Source: Candidatus Omnitrophota bacterium
Lineage (GTDB): Bacteria; Omnitrophota; Gorgyraeia; Gygaellales; Profunditerraquicolaceae
Reading direction: 5' to 3'
DNA length: 64,000 nt
NCBI GenBank assembly: GCA_026387335.1
Contig: JAPLLX010000006.1
Span: 44,949-108,948, forward strand
Position 1 is the stretch's first letter. Each line of letters starts with the position of its first letter. A program made the translations under genes and the position numbers. The notes below the pieces were generated by a model. The model ran no database searches. It saw only the letters and a program-made list of their open reading frames with translations, and had not been told where the DNA came from. Of the stretch, positions 1-5,674 are shown in pieces.

Positions 1-255
1 TATAAAACTAAAGCCTGGGATTGGCTCTTAGAAGCCAGGAAAAAACTGGATAAAATAAATAAAGACCTTAGCGCTGAGAAACTAACCCTGGCCTGGAAAC
101 AAATTTACATACTCGAAGGTAGCGATTGGTTCTGGTGGTACGGAGAAGACCCGGATGGCTCTTTTGATAAGCTCTTTCGCCGGCACTTAAACAACTTCTA
201 CGCGATTATTGGAGAAATTCCTCCGGATTATTTACAGAGCCCTCTAAGTACTTGA
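1..255 (+). CDS. 3' fragment of a glycoside hydrolase family 57 (GH57) alpha-glucan branching/glucanotransferase-like gene; 5' end lies outside the window
   Basis: Frame 1 from nt 1 is open to a TGA at 253-255. It encodes ...GSDWFWWYGEDPDGSFDKLFRRHLNNFYAIIGEIP. The SDWFWWYGE motif is characteristic of GH57 C-terminal regions. Confidence 0.55.
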   Translation, partial: YKTKAWDWLLEARKKLDKINKDLSAEKLTLAWKQIYILEGSDWFWWYGEDPDGSFDKLFRRHLNNFYAIIGEIPPDYLQSPLST

Positions 256-282
256 CATTCAAGGCCTTTTGTGTTATAAATA

Positions 283-861
283 GTGCAAGTTAAAATGGAT
301 AAAAAAGATATCTACGAACATTTAGCCAAGATTTATCTTGACGCTTCTTCTAAGAAGAAAAAACGCAACAAGGCTTACCCGAAACTTTTCCAGAATCTTT
401 TCATCGTAAGCATATTTGTGGTGATCGGCCTGGCGAGTACTTTATTTTCTTCCGCATCTAAGAAGCAGGCCTTGCATTCGGAAACCGCCCTGGTCCTGCA
501 GAATGATCCCGCTAAAATAAATTTTAATTTTAACCCCGCTAAAAAAGAAATCTACACCCTTAACCTAAACCGCCTTAATATAGCCCATTCTAAGGCCTTG
601 GGTTTTTCAGTCAGGAATATCTCCCCTAAGGATAAAATAACTTTAAGGATCGAATTTACCAACGCCTTTAAAGAAAGATCTGAGGTCTACATCCGGGCTA
701 TTCCTTCTAAGTGGCAGGATTTTAAAATCAACTTAGCGGAATTTAAGAATATAACTGACTGGTCAGAAATGACGACTCTGGCTTTTTCGGTTGAAGAATG
801 GAACGCCGCGCAAAAAAAAGGCGTGGTTTATATAGACAATGTCCGGCTTCTTAAAACATGA
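283..861 (+). CDS. Membrane-anchored hypothetical protein with a C-terminal beta-sandwich carbohydrate-binding-module-like domain
   Basis: 192-aa ORF. It has a Lys-rich N-terminus and one strong TM helix (LFIVSIFVVIGLASTLF). The C-terminus ...WNAAQKKGVVYIDNVRL resembles CBM4/9-type domain endings. Its stop lies 18 nt before the ParA start, which has an AAAGGAGA Shine-Dalgarno site. Confidence 0.45.
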   Translation: MQVKMDKKDIYEHLAKIYLDASSKKKKRNKAYPKLFQNLFIVSIFVVIGLASTLFSSASKKQALHSETALVLQNDPAKINFNFNPAKKEIYTLNLNRLNIAHSKALGFSVRNISPKDKITLRIEFTNAFKERSEVYIRAIPSKWQDFKINLAEFKNITDWSEMTTLAFSVEEWNAAQKKGVVYIDNVRLLKT

Positions 862-878
862 AAGGAGAATTTTAAACC

Positions 879-1982
879 ATGCGCATAATAGCGATCACTA
901 ACCAAAAAGGCGGCTGTGGCAAAACTACCACCTCGGTCAATTTAGCTGCGTCTTTAGCCACTAACGGCCGCAAAGTGCTCTTGATTGACCTTGACCCTCA
1001 GTCACACGCTACATTAGGCTTAAATATAAAAGCTCCTTTAAGTATTTATAATGTCCTCTCTAAAACCGCGCATCAAAAGGCCAAGCTTGATGAGATCATC
1101 CAGAATATCAGCCCGGATTTTGATATAGCACCATCTAGCATTATTTTAAGCACAATCGAACAAGAATTATCCGGAGAAATCGGAAGAGAATCCCGGCTCT
1201 GGGATACCTTAAGCGCTTTTAAGGGATGCTACGATTACGTGCTGATAGATTGCCCGCCGAACTTAGGTATTTTAACTATAAACGCCATACGCGCGGCCAC
1301 TGAAGTAATTATCCCGGTTGAGGCCAGCAGATTTTCACTGGAGGGTATGGACCAGTTGCTTGGCATAATCAACTTAGTCCGCGACCGCTTAAACCATGAA
1401 GTCAGTTGTAGAATACTGGTAACGAACTTTGATTCACGGCTAGCGCATTCCTTTAAGATGCTGACGAAGATAAAGACTGATTTTAAAGAGAGACTCTTTA
1501 GCAATATCATCCATGTGAATGTCCGGTTAAAAGAAGCCCAAAATCAGGGCACGCATATATTTAATTTTGACAAATACTGCCGCGGGGCAAAAGATTATTT
1601 CAGCCTTTCCCGGGAAATAATTACTCTGGAAAAAGAACCTAAGCCGGCTACAGTTAAACCGATAGCGGTTTTAGAGAAGAAGATGAATGAAATACTCAAA
1701 AAAGAACTGCCTAAGCTTAATGAAGTAATCTTCTCGGTTTTCGCGCCGGAGGCAAAAGAAGTCTATGTCGCGGGAGAATTCAATAACTGGAAACTGGAAG
1801 ATTCCGGCCGGATGCTTAAAAATAACGGCACCTGGAGCAAAAAATTAAACTTAAACGGCGGCAAATACCGCTATCGCTTTGTTATTGACGGAAACTGGAT
1901 TGAGGATTCCGCTAATCCTTTGAAAGAAGTCAATCCTTACGGTTCAGTTGATTCCCTGATTGAAATAAGCAGCAAAAAATAG
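879..1982 (+). CDS. ParA/MinD-family P-loop ATPase fused to a C-terminal AMPK-beta-type glycogen-binding domain (CBM48)
   Basis: The deviant Walker A motif NQKGGCGKTTTSVNLA and a ParA-like body occupy about aa 1-250. The C-terminal 85 aa read KEVYVAGEFNNW...GKYRYRFVIDGNWIEDSANP...GSVDSLIEI. This aligns with the AMPK beta1 glycogen-binding domain (KEVYLSGSFNNW...GEHQYKFFVDGQWTHDPSEP). Confidence 0.8.
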   Translation: MRIIAITNQKGGCGKTTTSVNLAASLATNGRKVLLIDLDPQSHATLGLNIKAPLSIYNVLSKTAHQKAKLDEIIQNISPDFDIAPSSIILSTIEQELSGEIGRESRLWDTLSAFKGCYDYVLIDCPPNLGILTINAIRAATEVIIPVEASRFSLEGMDQLLGIINLVRDRLNHEVSCRILVTNFDSRLAHSFKMLTKIKTDFKERLFSNIIHVNVRLKEAQNQGTHIFNFDKYCRGAKDYFSLSREIITLEKEPKPATVKPIAVLEKKMNEILKKELPKLNEVIFSVFAPEAKEVYVAGEFNNWKLEDSGRMLKNNGTWSKKLNLNGGKYRYRFVIDGNWIEDSANPLKEVNPYGSVDSLIEISSKK

Positions 1983-2038
1983 TACCCCGCGCTTATAAGG
2001 AATTGCGCGGGTATGCCCGTGTGGGCAAGGAGGTACGT

Positions 2039-2443
2039 ATGGCGCTAAAGAAGAAGCTGAAGAAAAAAGCAGTAAAGAAAGCGGCCAAAAGAAAACCTTT
2101 AAAGAAAAAAACCGCTAAGAGAGTAGCCAGTAAGAAGAAACCCGCCAAGAAAGTCGTATCCAAAAGAAAAACCTCGGTTGCTAAAGTTAAACGGCCCAAG
2201 GAAAAAGTAATTGGTAATATTACGCATTATTTTCCGCATGTGCAGGCTGCGGTAATTAAATTAAAGGCACCCCTAGCGGTTGGCGACACAATCAAGATTA
2301 AAGGCCACACAACAGACTTTAACCAAACCATAAGCTCTATGCAGATTGACCATGTTCCTGTGAATTTGGCTAAAATAGGGCAAGAGATAGGCTTACTGGT
2401 GAATTCCCGGGTTAGGCAGCACGATTTAGTCTATAAAGTATAA
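2039..2443 (+). CDS. Histone H1-like Lys/Ala-rich basic protein with a C-terminal EF-Tu-domain-2-like beta-barrel
   Basis: AAGGAGG lies 6 nt upstream of ATG 2039. The N-terminal 70 aa are KKAVKKAAKRKPLKKKTAKR repeats. The C-terminus ...AVIKLKAPLAVGDTIKIKGHTT...IGLLVNSRVRQHDLVY fits the EF-Tu domain 2 pattern. The ORF-track start at 2003 is probably too far upstream. Confidence 0.6.
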   Translation: MALKKKLKKKAVKKAAKRKPLKKKTAKRVASKKKPAKKVVSKRKTSVAKVKRPKEKVIGNITHYFPHVQAAVIKLKAPLAVGDTIKIKGHTTDFNQTISSMQIDHVPVNLAKIGQEIGLLVNSRVRQHDLVYKV

Positions 2444-2457
2444 AAAGGAGGGGAGCG

Positions 2458-2640
2458 GTGAGACTTTCAGAGGTAGAAAAGAAAGCGAAAGTCCTAGGGA
2501 TTAAAGACACCTGGAGGCTTTCCAAGAAAGAGTTAATCAAGACTATCCAGCGCGTAGAAGGTAACTCTACCTGCTTTGGGACCGGTAAAAACTCCTGTGA
2601 CCAGCTAACCTGCTGCTGGAGGGGCGACTGCGTAAGATGA
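2458..2640 (+). CDS. Small protein with a Rho_N-like N-terminus and a Cys-rich C-terminus
   Basis: 60 aa. LSEVEKKAKVLGIKDTWRLSKKELIKTIQ resembles the Rho termination factor N-terminal motif. The C-terminus is CFGTGKNSCDQLTCCWRGDC. A GGAGGGGAG Shine-Dalgarno site lies upstream. Confidence 0.4.
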   Translation: MRLSEVEKKAKVLGIKDTWRLSKKELIKTIQRVEGNSTCFGTGKNSCDQLTCCWRGDCVR

Positions 2641-2822
2641 AATACCACTGCCAGATTTGCGACCGCGACATTGATGATTTTGCCAGCCTTGCCCATATAA
2701 AAGCTGAGGAGTATCTGTTGGATCTAATCCGACGCGACCATCCTGAATGGCATGAGAAAAAGAAGACCTGCCATAAATGCGTTGAATACTACCGTAAATT
2801 AGTCAAGGAAAACGAAGTTTAA
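2637..2822 (+). CDS. Small zinc-ribbon protein (CxxC...CxxC)
   Basis: 61 aa with CQIC...CHKC. Its start overlaps the previous stop (ATGA). Confidence 0.4.
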   Translation: MKYHCQICDRDIDDFASLAHIKAEEYLLDLIRRDHPEWHEKKKTCHKCVEYYRKLVKENEV

Positions 2823-2930
2823 CCAGCGCGCTTTAAGGCCTGTTCTTAACCGGATAGGCCTTAAAAATGAACTATTTTCGGGTAAGTACCCATAATAAAT
2901 ACGGTGTTAAAACCCGGTAAGTCTAAGTAA

Positions 2931-3281
2931 ATGCAGACTCGAGGCAGGCCCAAAAAATACAGGATAGTGCATCTTGACCCTAAGATAAGCCAGTTTAGCC
3001 CAAGGGGTAAGCCCGGTAGGCCAAATGAGGTAGATCTGAGTATGGATGAGTTTGAGGCTATGCGGCTAAACGACTATATGGGATTACCGCAGAAAGAAGC
3101 AGCCAAATCCATGCATATATCCCAGCAAACCTTTAGCCGGATACTCAAGAAAGCGCATAGAAGCATTGCTAGCGGCTTAATCAACGGAAATACCATAAAG
3201 ATCCAGGGCGGCCATTACGTATTCAGTTCCCGCGAAGAAGATCCTAATCCCAACGTAAAACAACCCGGCGAAAACACCTAA
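2931..3281 (+). CDS. DUF134/UPF0251 family predicted DNA-binding protein
   Basis: GRPKKYRIV...FSPRGKPG...LSMDEFEAMRLNDYMGLPQKEAAKSMHISQQTFSRIL...TIKIQGGHY matches the conserved DUF134 pattern. Confidence 0.7.
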   Translation: MQTRGRPKKYRIVHLDPKISQFSPRGKPGRPNEVDLSMDEFEAMRLNDYMGLPQKEAAKSMHISQQTFSRILKKAHRSIASGLINGNTIKIQGGHYVFSSREEDPNPNVKQPGENT

Positions 3282-3548: not shown

Positions 3549-4652
3549 TTACTTTCGGGTTAAAATAACCTGGGCAGGAAAAATGGAACTCTCTCCAAAG
3601 CGGCTATTGATTCTATCCGTAGCCTTAATCAAGGCCTCTCTGCGTTTTTCCTCAGTTAATAAAGGCAGGTAGCTTTGCCGGCTTAAACCACTGGCAGTTA
3701 CTCCCAAGGCTCGGATTTTATAGCCTTTTTTAGGCATCCTAGCCATCACTCTAAGGGATCTTAGGTATATCTCATAGCTATCATTAGTGGCGCTAGAGAA
3801 GGTTTTTTGGGCTAAGAAATCGCCTGCTTGGGGGTTGTTTAACCAAAGATGCACAGTCCTGGCTATCAAGTTTTGCTGGCGCAGGCGCTGGCCAACCATC
3901 TCTGACAATAGCCTGATCCAGGCCAAGATAAACTGGGGGTTTCCGGATGCGCTGGGTAAAGTGTAGGAATGGCTTATGGACTTAGGCTGCTCCTTACTTT
4001 CATCAGCTTCCTCAAACTTACCGGGATTTTCATCAAAGAACTCCGGCAGCTTTAAATACAGGTCCCAACAGGTCTTTAAACCTTGGGCTATGAAAGCCTG
4101 GCCGGTTTTACCCGCCATCCCGCAGAGCTTACCTATCGCGGTACGAGCTAAGACCTCTTTAAAGTTAGACTCATTTATCAGGGTTAGGCCATTGGGCTTA
4201 TTGATTTTAGAGGCAAGCTTAGCTAAGAGCCAGTTCTTGGCTAGACCTATGGAAGCAGTGATGTTAAAGTTTGCATATATTTGCTCCCGGATCCTTTCGG
4301 CAAGCTTAAGCGGCTCTGGATGCTCCAGAATATCCATCTGGAATTCATCAACTGAAGCATAATTCAGTATGAACCCATAGCCCTTAAGCAGTTCAAAAAT
4401 CTGCTCTGAAGTCCAGATATACTTAGCCTGGTCCGCGGCTACAAATTCCAGATTTGGACATAGGTTAAAGGCATCTTTTGAAGGCATCCCAGAATGGATC
4501 CCTAAAGTTTTGGCTTCATAGCTAGCGGCGCAGACCACAGTGCGCATTTTATTGGCGCGCGAACCCACGATTAAAGGCTTTCCCAAAAGGTGCGGGTTTA
4601 TAGCCTGCTCAATTGAGGCAAAAAACGCGTCCATATCAATATGCAGAATCAT
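3549..4652 (-). CDS. dinB: DNA polymerase IV (Y-family translesion polymerase)
   Basis: MILHIDMDAFFASIEQ is the N-terminus, with catalytic DMDAFFAS and an IMPB/UmuC-like body. GAGG lies 5 nt upstream of ATG 4652. The ORF-track start at 4709 falls inside the upstream hairpin and is unlikely. Confidence 0.85.
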   Translation of the reverse strand: MILHIDMDAFFASIEQAINPHLLGKPLIVGSRANKMRTVVCAASYEAKTLGIHSGMPSKDAFNLCPNLEFVAADQAKYIWTSEQIFELLKGYGFILNYASVDEFQMDILEHPEPLKLAERIREQIYANFNITASIGLAKNWLLAKLASKINKPNGLTLINESNFKEVLARTAIGKLCGMAGKTGQAFIAQGLKTCWDLYLKLPEFFDENPGKFEEADESKEQPKSISHSYTLPSASGNPQFILAWIRLLSEMVGQRLRQQNLIARTVHLWLNNPQAGDFLAQKTFSSATNDSYEIYLRSLRVMARMPKKGYKIRALGVTASGLSRQSYLPLLTEEKRREALIKATDRINSRFGESSIFPAQVILTRK

Positions 4653-4661
4653 ATAAACCTC

Positions 4662-4736
4662 AGGGACGGTTCTCAACTCAAAGCAAAAGTGTCCCCTGTT
4701 AGGGGACACTTTGAGATTAGCTTGAGAACCGTCCCT
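4662..4736 (-). promoter_or_regulatory. 75-nt compound stem-loop immediately upstream of the dinB Shine-Dalgarno site; it includes a terminator-like hairpin plus U-tract
   Basis: It has 15-bp outer arms AGGGACGGTTCTCAA/TTGAGAACCGTCCCT, a 6-7-bp middle stem CTCAAAG/CTTTGAG, and an inner hairpin GTGTCCCCT-gtta-AGGGGACAC. On the minus strand this is followed by UUUUGCUUUG. Confidence 0.6.
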
Positions 4737-5043
4737 AACTAATCAGCTTATCAATCTGCCAGCGGAAGGTGGAATTATTAAATGAAATCTGATATAACTG
4801 GCCCAAGCAGCTAACCGAGAAATAATTAACTAACGCCTGGCCTAAGCGCTCCTGCCAATTGTAAGTGATAGTTTCAATCTGGTATTCTTTATTATTCCAG
4901 GTGAAGCTTTTAGGAAAAATCCTGGCGTTCTTAAAATAAGCTAGGACCTCAATCCGTTCGTCTAGTTCATCCGGATTAAAACCTTGGGGTTGCGGCTCAA
5001 ACCTATCCCAGCGGGCCTTAGGATTAAAACTATTTTGATTCAT
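4735..5043 (-). CDS. Hypothetical 102-aa protein between lexA and dinB; possibly a YolD-like accessory protein of Y-family polymerases
   Basis: Its start overlaps the lexA stop by 14 nt, and a terminator-like hairpin follows its stop. Similarity to YolD is weak (basic-W-acidic DELDE segment) and judged by eye only. Confidence 0.4.
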   Translation of the reverse strand: MNQNSFNPKARWDRFEPQPQGFNPDELDERIEVLAYFKNARIFPKSFTWNNKEYQIETITYNWQERLGQALVNYFSVSCLGQLYQISFNNSTFRWQIDKLIS

Positions 5044-5644
5044 ATTTCCTGATTACTGTCATCAACTTCCCGATTACCTTAAATTCTTCAAAAATTGGCG
5101 GGTAATTCGGGTTAGCCGCTTCCAAATGATATTTATTGCTTTTACGAATCAACCTTTTTAAGGTAACTTCATTATCATCCAAAAGCGCGGCTACAATCGC
5201 ATTATTCTCAGCATAGGGCTGTTTCTTGATAATCGCCACATCGCCTTCCAAGATACCGGCATTAACCATACTATCGCCCTTCACCTTTAAAGCAAAAACA
5301 TCGTCAAAGCCTAAACGGCCCAAAAAGAGATTATCCACATCCACGTACCCTTGAATTTCTTCATAAGCCAGATTTGGCTTGCCAGCCATAATGGTGCCGA
5401 TTATGGGTATTTTATTACAGCTCGCGCGTTCAGTTAATTCCAAAGCCCGGGATTTATTATTCATACGCCGTACCAAACCTTTCTGTTGTAAAGCCTTTAA
5501 GTAATCTCTCGCTGTGCCGGTAGATTTAAATCCCAGCTCCCCTGCTATCTCTCTGATAGTAGGAGGAAGCCTCTCCCCTACCTTTTTGCGGATAAAATTA
5601 AGCACCTTTTCCTGCTTTGGCGTCAGAAACGGCTTCTCTTTCAT
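5030..5644 (-). CDS. lexA: LexA repressor (S24 peptidase)
   Basis: MKEKPFLTPKQEKVLNFIRK...IREIAGELGFKSTGTARDYL is the HTH region. The cleavage site and catalytic region are ...VAAL..., ...VKGDSM... and ...IIKK.... The start was chosen by alignment to canonical LexA N-termini. Confidence 0.9.
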   Translation of the reverse strand: MKEKPFLTPKQEKVLNFIRKKVGERLPPTIREIAGELGFKSTGTARDYLKALQQKGLVRRMNNKSRALELTERASCNKIPIIGTIMAGKPNLAYEEIQGYVDVDNLFLGRLGFDDVFALKVKGDSMVNAGILEGDVAIIKKQPYAENNAIVAALLDDNEVTLKRLIRKSNKYHLEAANPNYPPIFEEFKVIGKLMTVIRKYESK

Positions 5645-5656
5645 GTTTATAGGTAT

Positions 5657-5674
5657 ACCACACATTTGTGTGGT
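5657..5674 (-). promoter_or_regulatory. Candidate LexA operator: a perfect palindrome in the spacer of the lexA promoter
   Basis: ACCACACA-TT-TGTGTGGT has 8-bp arms. On the minus strand it sits between TTGACA and TATACC. An ATG follows 7 nt after the -10, which gives leaderless geometry. Confidence 0.45.

Follow-up and report, generated by a model that had tools for sequence, protein, structure and literature searches.

Does the protein encoded by ORF 879..1982 (+ strand) combine an active ParA-type ATPase with a glycogen-binding module, and what would a cell gain from such a combination? ParA/MinD ATPases place chromosomes, plasmids, carboxysomes, chemoreceptor arrays, flagella and the divisome, and in classical ParA systems the cargo is carried by a partner and not by the ATPase. 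We know of no positioning or inheritance system for bacterial glycogen, the most widespread carbon store. The window analysed here is a 64,000-nucleotide stretch of a Candidatus Omnitrophota genome (GCA_026387335.1, contig JAPLLX010000006.1, positions 44,949 to 108,948 of the forward strand). The original prediction had described the ORF as a candidate for positioning glycogen granules.

The gene is an uninterrupted frame of 367 aa. Its product displays a ParA/Soj-type deviant-Walker-A ATPase domain (1–250 aa; 879..1628, + strand), assigned from AAA_31, PDB and Foldseek matches and conserved residues, then a linker of about 30 aa (251–278 aa; 1629..1712, + strand) and a C-terminal CBM48/AMPK-beta-type domain (279–365 aa; 1713..1973, + strand), assigned from Pfam, an AF2 model and the alignment of contact residues. 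Mapping with Pfam placed the boundaries as proposed, with AAA_31 at 1–175 aa (E 2e-54), CbiA at 4–225 aa, CBM_48 (PF02922) at 279–340 aa (33.8 bits, gathering cut-off 22.4) and AMPK1_CBM (PF16561) at 291–365 aa (50.3 bits, gathering cut-off 26.8). The predicted complete ParA/MinD ATPase with a KGGCGKTT Walker A motif is thus confirmed by the sequence and the AAA_31 match. A MinD-type C-terminal amphipathic membrane-targeting helix is absent, the C terminus being the CBM48 domain itself, which ends in ...SLIEISSKK. A frameshift or an assembly join of two genes is ruled out, because the same continuous ORF occurs in hundreds of independent assemblies (more than 120 clusters at 72–99% identity and 80 species-level loci).

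The search for further ParA-CBM48 fusions was productive: 129 of the best 150 representatives of 50%-identity clusters consist of a ParA domain and a single terminal CBM48. Relatives are encoded in at least 585 GTDB species genomes, and the best 80 (48–83% identity) are all full-length and all from Omnitrophota or mislabelled Omnitrophota, which argues that the fusion is under selection. Outside this phylum, carriers include Planctomycetota, Krumholzibacteriia (Krumholzibacteriota) and Leptospirillia (Nitrospirota). The gene is also present in Ca. Velamenicoccus archaeovorus (L055), which grows in enrichment cultures. A query for homologues of the linker and CBM returned only 21 contig-end fragments, which are uninformative on architecture. 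The family, marked by the signatures KGGCGKT (C13) and DPQxH (H43), is a large undescribed clade of ParA-CBM48 fusions. Searches of the literature on ParA together with glycogen or CBM48 yielded no description of this architecture and nothing relevant to a ParA system for glycogen granules, in line with the original claim.

The C-terminal domain had been aligned to AMPK beta, and phmmer reproduced this alignment against the PDB chains 2f15, 1z0n and 1z0m (E 3e-10 to 3e-9); the AF2 model of the domain has a pLDDT of 85–90. In AMPK beta1, glucan is contacted by W100, K126, W133, L146 and T148 (PMC2642990), which align to W304, R333, W340, Y354 and S356, all five positions being conserved or conservatively replaced. 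Within Omnitrophota, all five, S356 among them, are invariant or at least 90% conserved, with no exceptions at W304, R333 and W340 and at least 90% at Y354; family-wide the two contact tryptophans stay at least 90% conserved despite a mean column identity of 16%, and distant members also exceed the gathering thresholds of the CBM48/AMPK1_CBM profiles. With profile scores above the cut-offs and contact residues intact, the domain is by its sequence a genuine CBM48/AMPK-beta-type module, putatively alpha-glucan-binding, and we infer that its ligand is glycogen. Omnitrophota genomes carry glgC, glgA, glgB, glgP and malQ (Seymour 2023, supplementary file 6), so such a ligand exists in these bacteria. 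The linker includes a helix conserved in Omnitrophota (LEKKMxEILKExLPKL), modelled by AF2 at 262–276 aa with low pLDDT. Across the wider family its length ranges from 7 to 361 aa, which, together with the single terminal CBM48, suggests a tether-like design.

The closest PDB chains to the ATPase domain are chromosomal ParA/Soj proteins (8ray, E 3e-49; 1wcv; 6iub), with about 40–45% identity to those of M. xanthus and T. thermophilus. Foldseek also ranked Soj/ParA first (E 4e-21 to 1e-16, TM to target about 0.8), with McdA, MinD, BcsQ and FlhG next, in a comparison made on an AF2 model that is only moderate for the ATPase part (mean pLDDT 69.5). The deviant Walker A motif, K10-G-G-C-G-K15-T-T, includes the N-terminal signature lysine K10; in Motif 2/Walker A' (DxDPQ) and Walker B, D37, D39, P40, Q41 and D124 are invariant, and K10, K15, D37, D39 and D124 are conserved in 129/129 family representatives. 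The counterparts of the motif-2 aspartates are M. xanthus D58/D60 and T. thermophilus D44. From these residues the product of ORF 879..1982 is predicted to be an active ParA/Soj-type ATPase. The NCBIfam equivalog models for ParA_partition, RepA, SopA, MinD and BcsQ all score it below their cut-offs (ParA_partition 108 vs 180; RepA 107 vs 348; MinD 67 vs 213; BcsQ 81 vs 158).

Two further surfaces of the ATPase bear on its function. DNA binding has been assigned to K227, K230 and K247 in HpSoj and R189 in BsSoj (PMC6393308). Position 216, equivalent to BsSoj R189/HpSoj K230, is R here and K or R in 104/129 representatives, and R187 is kept in 116/129. Of the three basic positions that are conserved for DNA binding in HpSoj, K227 is lost (V213), with the canonical PRNVRL changed to HVNV[R/K]L, and HpSoj K247 corresponds to Y233, flanked by the invariant K232 and R235; the changes at K227 and K247 make nucleoid binding uncertain. 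The second surface is the pocket in which M. xanthus ParA receives its partner peptide. Of its six hydrophobic residues, five are retained (L150/L152/L155/L187/L192 as L129/I131/I134/L166/L171), as are Y81 (Y57) and E117 (E96). V116 is changed to Q95 and, in the Arg-binding pocket, E82 and D110 are changed to N58 and I89. Most of the pocket is thus retained, probably with altered specificity.

Which protein could use this pocket? Immediately upstream lies ORF 295..861 (+ strand; alternative GTG start at 283), encoding an unannotated 188 aa single-pass membrane protein that we call up192 and that the original prediction left unmentioned. It comprises a cytosolic amphipathic N-terminal helix (MDKKDIYEHLAKIYLDAS), a Lys-rich stretch, a transmembrane helix and a periplasmic CBM11-like beta-sandwich. 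Its gene adjoins the fusion gene in 72/72 Omnitrophota loci, and the N-terminal helix is invariant throughout, which makes up192 a candidate partner of the ATPase in this phylum. We infer a further likeness from the spacing of the conserved helix positions Y7, H9, A11, Y14 and L15, which would match that of L11, R13, L15, L18 and I19 in ParB. Outside Omnitrophota the fusion gene neighbours a pair of proteins, d1 and d2, the downstream d1 carrying a ParB-like N-terminal motif of the KKLGRGLEEVSHLFLS type (LGRGL). The LG[RK]G motif is absent from up192, and reciprocal HMMs found no similarity between its N-helix and the d1 N-termini, so detectable homology of the two was rejected. The proposal that the ATPase binds its cargo directly and dispenses with a ParB-like adaptor is therefore unlikely, because most of the pocket is kept and partner-type genes accompany the fusion everywhere.

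Downstream of the fusion gene, at 2039..2443 (+ strand), a 134 aa Lys-rich protein is encoded, in which a histone-H1-like basic tail precedes an EF-Tu-domain-2-like beta-barrel. This neighbour is conserved (59/64 loci with enough flank); PF03144 matches 39/60 of its members and HC2 5/60, and a profile search led to eEFSec and EF-Tu domain 2. The d1 HMM weakly picked an 'ITHYF' strand of these Lys-rich proteins (E 2–10). Between the two genes, just past the stop codon, the sequence can be read as a 7-bp G+C hairpin (1986..2011, + strand; CCCGCGC, a 12-nt loop, GCGCGGG) with no T-run. The hairpin is not among the calls of the terminator scan, and promoter and terminator scans performed no better than shuffles; it may serve as an attenuator or stabilise the RNA.

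The original prediction also set the fusion directly next to a GH57 gene, which does not hold, with up192 lying in between. The truncated ORF 1..255 (+ strand), the 3' end of that gene (last 84 codons and stop), does contain the SDWFWWYGE motif in its translation. This 84 aa tail alone has no Pfam or NCBIfam match, so its identity as an amylopullulanase-like, alpha-glucan hydrolase was taken from the orthologue on a 99%-identical contig (L001). There the full-length protein has 510 aa, matches PF03065 (GH57), is nearest among solved structures to the GH57 amylopullulanase 8zyi/9jlq (E about 1e-81) and shows readable HQP, GQIEL, WPSEES and DGEN motifs. It starts MHQPYY, with its 'HQP' motif and no signal peptide, and is therefore taken to be cytoplasmic. 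As for the wider link, a GH57 gene lies near the fusion in 23/47 Omnitrophota loci with enough upstream sequence; this part of the claim stands, as a clade-specific feature, but the link is not family-wide, a GH57 gene being found in only one of seven other contexts. In that second lineage (L093), where the linkage recurs independently, two GH57 genes, one of them with BE_C (branching enzyme), and a DUF4912 gene come after the module.

The reading that we favour, though we hold it tentatively and at slightly less than even chances, is that the fusion protein acts as an ATP-regulated tether that holds or positions glycogen, linking cytoplasmic particles of it to a positioning and partition cycle of the ParA type. 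The basis is what was directly observed: the domain architecture, the conserved residues, the phyletic breadth and the linked genes. The ATP-bound dimer would present two CBM48 modules and hold one glycogen particle, and its retained Arg/Lys patch might also attach it to a matrix, for which the nucleoid is the likeliest candidate. A partner encoded alongside, up192 in Omnitrophota and the LGRGL-motif downstream protein in other phyla, would dock its amphipathic N-terminal peptide in the dimer-interface pocket, triggering ATP hydrolysis and release. As a result, a few large glycogen particles would be distributed or inherited, or set at a defined site. Several points count against glycogen positioning: a cargo-bound ATPase is the reverse of the classical arrangement and alone gives no Brownian-ratchet gradient, and GH57 is missing from about half of the Omnitrophota loci and six of the seven other contexts. 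Besides, most Omnitrophota are ultra-small cells (PMC10066038), which makes the need for active positioning less obvious.

The constant neighbours in Omnitrophota are envelope proteins and not glycogen enzymes, so that an envelope-linked role is at least as much indicated. A typical neighbourhood consists of a porin, the membrane CBM-like protein up192, the ParA-CBM48 fusion and the Lys-rich protein, the porin being of the Alginate_exp type and present in 41/47 loci. On this evidence the fusion could be a BcsQ-like organiser of a glucan-handling machine in the envelope, the up192 N-helix recruiting the ATPase to the inner membrane. Such a complex would join the porin, a periplasmic glycan-binding domain and cytoplasmic GH57 processing, with the CBM48 keeping a glucan chain or particle on site, for example in uptake-coupled storage or mobilisation. 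We regard this as unlikely. The module lacks a conserved glycosyltransferase or synthase and an inner-membrane transporter, the GH57 protein is cytoplasmic, fusions outside Omnitrophota occur with neither porin nor up192, and the ATPase scores far below the NCBIfam cut-off for BcsQ (80.7 vs 157.85) while being much nearer to Soj in fold and sequence.

Could this nearness to Soj mean that the ATPase still serves the chromosome? CBM48 occupancy might modulate a Soj-like ATPase/dimer cycle, as glycogen does through AMPK beta, with chromosome segregation, replication control or division-site placement as the output, the cell cycle being coupled in this way to carbon reserves. The similarity to the M. 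xanthus and T. thermophilus chromosomal proteins, the retention of Y57, E96 and the hydrophobic residues of the ParB-type pocket, and the precedent of the AMPK GBD, a documented allosteric glycogen sensor (PMC2642990), speak for it. So does the existence of ParB in Omnitrophota, where the KO lists of two genomes contain both ParA and ParB (K03497) (Seymour 2023, supplementary file 6). ParB is, however, never found near the fusion gene among the related loci scanned. Neither the window nor 1.3 Mb of related loci contains a ParB box (GERRxRA), the window shows no parS consensus at up to three mismatches, and no annotated locus context has a ParBc Pfam match, which bears out the original observation that parB and parS are not visible nearby. 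A parB just upstream, beyond the window, is likewise rejected: the 10 kb upstream on L001 encode a tRNA synthetase, PPDK, a sigma-70 factor, a PRTase, a PHP protein, the porin and GH57. With no parB or parS within 10 kb in about 90 loci, a clade that has its own signatures (C13, H43) and a changed Arg pocket (E82, D110), linkers whose range of lengths suits a tether better than allosteric coupling, and dedicated partner genes with their own LGRGL motif adjoining the fusion in other phyla, we consider a glycogen-state sensor of this kind quite improbable.

More speculative still is an inverted ParA system, in which the ATPase would be the glycogen receptor and its activator would be the transmembrane up192, with its CBM11-like outer domain beside an outer-membrane porin. 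Such an arrangement would link a glycan signal or uptake site outside the cell or in the periplasm, across the envelope, to the anchoring or release of glycogen; the input could be, for example, prey- or host-derived glucan in ultra-small, host-dependent bacteria. If this holds, a polysaccharide storage body would for the first time be seen to have an active positioning system, and a ParA/MinD ATPase would for the first time be under control from the other side of a membrane. Finally, an ordinary chromosomal Soj/ParA whose Ig-like E-set domain makes protein-protein contacts in place of glucan contacts is very improbable: the source-database labels of the fusion entries ('chromosome partitioning protein' or 'Soj'), the non-carbohydrate roles that the CBM48/E-set fold also serves and a weak NCBIfam match to a T9SS plug protein over the CBM48 region favour it, against which stand the five conserved or conservatively replaced glucan-contact positions with their two strongly conserved tryptophans, the missing ParB/parS linkage and the GH57 linkage in two independent lineages.

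Returning to the tether, a conserved and unstudied architecture across a whole phylum points to active tethering or distribution of glycogen stores in some bacteria, and a ParA clade hard-wired to a glycogen-binding module is a concrete, easily testable candidate for glycogen positioning. On this proposal, cargo recognition would for the first time lie with the ATPase itself. The analysis also places three uncharacterised protein families (up192, the Lys-rich beta-barrel protein, the d1/d2 pair) in a functional context for the first time, and it corrects the chromosome-partitioning annotation of hundreds of entries.

How does the fusion compare with known systems? It resembles chromosomal ParA/Soj (8ray, 1wcv/2bek, 6iub) in fold and has its nearest sequences there (E 1e-35 to 1e-49). 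It shares with the ParA of ParABS systems the Walker A signature lysine, DxDPQ, the Walker B aspartate and the R189/K230 equivalent, and with M. xanthus ParA most of the hydrophobic residues of the partner-peptide pocket and Y81/E117. Unlike ParABS ParA, it has no adjacent parB/parS, and a linker and CBM48 are added at its C terminus; it displays KGGCGKT, DPQxH and HVNV[R/K]L where Soj has KGGVGKT, DPQGN and PRNVRL, and Soj E82/D110 are not conserved. As in McdA/McdB, and as with PomZ, ParC/PpfA, FlhG and MipZ, an orphan ParA-family ATPase stands beside cargo-related genes with a small partner, and partners act via a basic N-terminal peptide (PMC10241942; PMC11407121). The presumed polysaccharide cargo is without precedent among the ParA/MinD cargos described, the word 'glycogen' being absent from the 2024 review and the 2023 survey. 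In contrast to the McdAB-type systems, here the ATPase itself bears the cargo-recognition module, and the partner candidate in Omnitrophota is transmembrane.

The C-terminal module is a single small terminal beta-sandwich with the Pfam membership of the AMPK beta GBD and of the CBM48 domains of GlgB, isoamylase, SEX4, LSF1 and PTST. It differs from them in sitting on a P-loop ATPase and not on a kinase scaffold, a glucan enzyme, a phosphatase or a coiled-coil, and from AMPK beta1 in the replacement of K126 by Arg, of L146 by Tyr and of the N150-aligned residue by Asp. Like BcsQ, the fusion is a ParA/MinD ATPase tied to polysaccharide handling, with a Pfam CBP_BcsQ match, and, as in the BcsQ operon, an outer-membrane porin and a membrane-anchored periplasmic carbohydrate-binding protein are encoded alongside. 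Unlike BcsQ, it is accompanied neither by BcsR/E/A/B homologues nor by a synthase and is nearer to Soj in fold and sequence, and its predicted polysaccharide module is cytoplasmic and alpha-glucan-specific.

The ParA-CBM48 fusion is real and widespread. The 367-aa frame at 879..1982 (+) is intact and, as the original prediction had it, joins a ParA ATPase to a glycogen-binding module, with Pfam matches to AAA_31 (aa 1-175, E 2e-54), CbiA (aa 4-225), AMPK1_CBM (aa 291-365, 50.3 bits; GA 26.8) and CBM_48 (aa 279-340, 33.8 bits; GA 22.4). The proposed AMPK-beta alignment was reproduced by phmmer against PDB sequences, which returned the glycogen-binding domains of AMPK beta1/beta2 at E ~1e-9 to 3e-10. 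Identical architecture is present in more than 120 90%-identity clusters (72-99% identity), all from Omnitrophota and named 'AAA family ATPase', 'chromosome partitioning protein' or 'Soj'. When one genome per GTDB species was searched, at least 585 stretches encoded a relative, the best 80 of which are full length with 48-83% identity and include one from the complete genome of Ca. Velamenicoccus archaeovorus. Among the best 150 matches of an exhaustive HMMER search over 1.84 billion representatives, local HMMs placed one ParA domain and then one C-terminal CBM48 in 129, separated by a linker of 7-361 aa (median 43); named members include those of Krumholzibacteriia, Leptospirillia (682 aa) and Tepidisphaeraceae (496 aa). 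The clade signature residues are C13 (KGGCGKT, 120/129 representatives) and H43 (DPQxH, 125/129). Two ParA proteins of this KGGCGKT/DPQxH clade, P0433 (NQT47305.1, Omnitrophota, 319 aa) and P0275 (284 aa), carry a short acidic or basic tail in the place of CBM48 and may be secondary losses or fragments. Many ENA 'binchicken' MAGs with the Omnitrophota-type locus (L013, L025, L027-L030 and others) are titled 'uncultured Planctomycetales', which is probably a taxonomic mislabel.

Chromosomal ParA/Soj proteins (8ray, 1wcv/2bek, 6iub) are the nearest structures to the ATPase domain by sequence and fold, and the fusion scores well under every cut-off of the NCBIfam equivalogs ParA_partition, RepA, SopA, MinD and BcsQ. 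K10, K15, D37, D39 and D124 are unchanged in 129/129 representatives. The ParB-peptide pocket of M. xanthus ParA is formed by V116, L150, L152, L155, L187, L192, Y81, E82, D110 and E117 (PMC12462528); L150/L152/L155/L187/L192 are all retained in the fusion as L129/I131/I134/L166/L171, as are Y81 (Y57) and E117 (E96), whereas V116, E82 and D110 are altered to Q95, N58 and I89. With the catalytic and most pocket residues retained, the protein resembles a functional ParA still built to receive an amphipathic partner peptide, probably with altered specificity. The DNA-contact lysines of HpSoj, K227, K230 (the equivalent of BsSoj R189) and K247 (PMC6393308), were placed on the fusion via sequence alignment: K230/R189 falls on R216, a position with K or R in 104/129 representatives, K247 on Y233, whose neighbours K232 and R235 are invariant, and K227 on V213, where the basic residue is lost. 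On sequence grounds, DNA binding by the fusion ATPase is plausible.

The absence of a neighbouring parB was borne out, with no ParBc domain in any annotated context and no ParB box in 1.3 Mb of loci; likewise, no parS occurs in the window. ParA and ParB KOs are both present in two Omnitrophota genomes (Seymour et al. 2023); a ParB exists and never adjoins the ParA-CBM48 gene. The supplementary KO tables for the same two genomes list glgC, glgA, glgB, a GH57 branching enzyme, glgP and malQ (Seymour et al. 2023), which indicates that glycogen is made in Omnitrophota.

Neighbours in the phylum were counted by ORF clustering over 80 species loci, with loci of enough flank as denominators. A 188-aa membrane protein, up192 (295..861 (+) in the window), is encoded directly upstream of the fusion in 72/72 loci, and an Alginate_exp-type porin lies upstream in 41/47, directly abutting up192 in 18/47. 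Members of the up192 family occur in Omnitrophota only; all 985 homologues are called 'hypothetical' and no Pfam model matches. They share an N-terminal cytosolic helix, which is invariant, then a TM helix, and their periplasmic part is a CBM11-like beta-sandwich in which Trp, Glu and Asn residues are invariant. This invariant tie to a porin and a CBM-like membrane protein suggests that the fusion could organise an envelope complex for glucan handling in the manner of BcsQ, a role that we consider unlikely.

A GH57 gene occupies the porin–up192 interval in 23/47 loci and is confined to the sub-clade nearer to the window. It does not adjoin the fusion as first supposed, since the overlooked ORF 295..861 sits between them. 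The truncated gene at 1..255 was rightly recognised by its SDWFWWYGE motif, and in L001, a contig that is 99% identical, it forms the 3' end of a gene for a 510-aa PF03065 GH57 protein, but 1..255 alone has no profile match. The nearest solved structure to the L001 protein is a GH57 amylopullulanase (8zyi/9jlq, E ~1e-81), and its cytoplasmic location is indicated by the GH57 HQP motif standing at its very start. In one relative (L006:1060-7113), five inserted genes separate GH57 from up192, and one of them encodes a 956-aa protein bearing T2SS pilin-N and SdrD_B-like domains; this shows that GH57 is less tightly linked than up192.

Downstream of the fusion, a Lys-rich protein is encoded in 59/64 loci and a DUF4870/MamF-like small TM protein in 46/64. 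The former (2039-2443 (+), 134 aa) displays a histone-H1/HC2-like poly-Lys tail, then an EF-Tu-domain-2-like beta-barrel carrying a conserved GxITHYF... motif. Directly 3' of the fusion stop codon, a hairpin at 1986-2011 has a perfect 7-bp G+C stem (CCCGCGC/GCGCGGG), a 12-nt loop and no T tract, with the next gene starting 27 nt further on. Three small conserved genes stand in tandem at 2458-3281 (+), encoding a 60-aa Rho_N/SAP-like protein, an overlapping 61-aa Cys-rich protein (CxxC...CxxC) and a DUF134 HTH protein, and in some Omnitrophota loci the first two are again present downstream of the fusion module. An SOS-type cassette follows at 3549-5665 (-), with LexA (5030-5665), an unannotated 102-aa ORF (4735-5043) and a DinB/IMS Y-family polymerase (3549-4709) in an order preserved in L001 and in a further related locus, L003. 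The remainder of the window is housekeeping (CPSase, CstA, ThiC, TonB receptor, the LexA/Pol IV module and others).

The AF2 model folds aa 282-363 of the fusion into a beta-sandwich (pLDDT 85-90). In AMPK beta1, W100, K126, W133, L146 and T148 contact carbohydrate and their mutation abolishes glycogen binding (PMC2642990); they align with W304, R333, W340, Y354 and S356. In Omnitrophota, W304, R333 and W340 are invariant and conservation of Y354 is at least 90%. Both Trp residues stay at or above 90% conservation in alignments with a mean column identity of only 16-45%. Such a pattern looks like that expected of a ligand-binding, not purely structural, module. An AMPK-like glycogen sensor acting on Soj function is a doubtful reading of the same domain, and it is very improbable that the protein is simply a Soj whose Ig domain serves something other than glucan.

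Outside Omnitrophota, an unannotated gene, d1 (230-340 aa), follows the fusion in six contexts, and another, d2 (110-205 aa), comes next in five of them (L093:9168-10833, L091:9140-10464, L092:10166-11443, L094:1220-2492 and L088:5177-6198); L097:2057-3010 holds d1 only. The d1 N-terminal motif (KKLGRGLEEVSHLFLS; KKKLGRGLEEVSHLFLSS in L093, KKLGRGIEEISHYFLSS in L097, REGLQRISHYFLSE in L094 and PRGLAAVAHHFLSG in L091) is very similar to the motif by which chromosomal ParB binds ParA. The rest of d1 resembles a degenerate ParA/MinD fold, with a weak CbiA match in one member, and d2 has a conserved LTE[ED]E.AFF-like motif at its C-terminal end; as a pair, d1 and d2 look like an undescribed partner module. 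In Omnitrophota neighbours of the fusion the LG[RK]G motif was not found, and the up192 helix and the d1 N-termini gave no mutual match when searched as HMMs; the d1 HMM weakly matches the 'ITHYF' strand of the Lys-rich proteins (E 2-10). ParB L11, R13, L15, L18 and I19 have the same spacing (i, i+2, i+4, i+7, i+8) as Y7, H9, A11, Y14 and L15 of the up192 helix, from which we infer a possible likeness. In L093 (GCA_040961635.1), of an unrelated lineage, GH57, DUF4912 and GH57+BE_C genes, the last encoding a GH57 branching enzyme, lie directly after ParA-CBM48/d1/d2 (L093:10852-14665). This compact alpha-glucan cluster is a second, independent tie of the fusion to alpha-glucan metabolism; no glycogen genes were seen in the other non-Omnitrophota contexts.

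The original prediction of adaptor-free cargo binding is not supported, since conservation extends to both partner-type genes and the partner pocket. We infer the function in its entirety; the reading with the best support, to which we give a nearly even chance, is that ATP regulates the coupling of cytoplasmic glycogen to a ParA-type cycle, with a dedicated non-ParB partner. The architecture fits a tether, in that each ATP dimer would present two CBMs and the flexible linkers that carry them differ widely in length. Caution comes from the loss of one DNA-binding position, from the patchy GH57 linkage and from the fact that a cargo-bound ATPase alone gives no ratchet gradient. The tiny size of most Omnitrophota cells (PMC10066038) counts likewise.

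In agreement with the claim of novelty, a literature search over 8 million full texts found no ParA linked to glycogen or CBM48; a 2024 ParA/MinD review, a 2023 multi-ATPase survey and Omnitrophota genomics papers do not mention one, and database names for the fusion proteins are only generic or misleading. The observation of the fusion is solid and broad, and the glycogen hypothesis attractive and cheaply testable. Altogether, we rate the fusion as belonging to a known kind, the ParA/MinD positioning ATPases, of which it represents a previously undescribed, CBM48-bearing variant.
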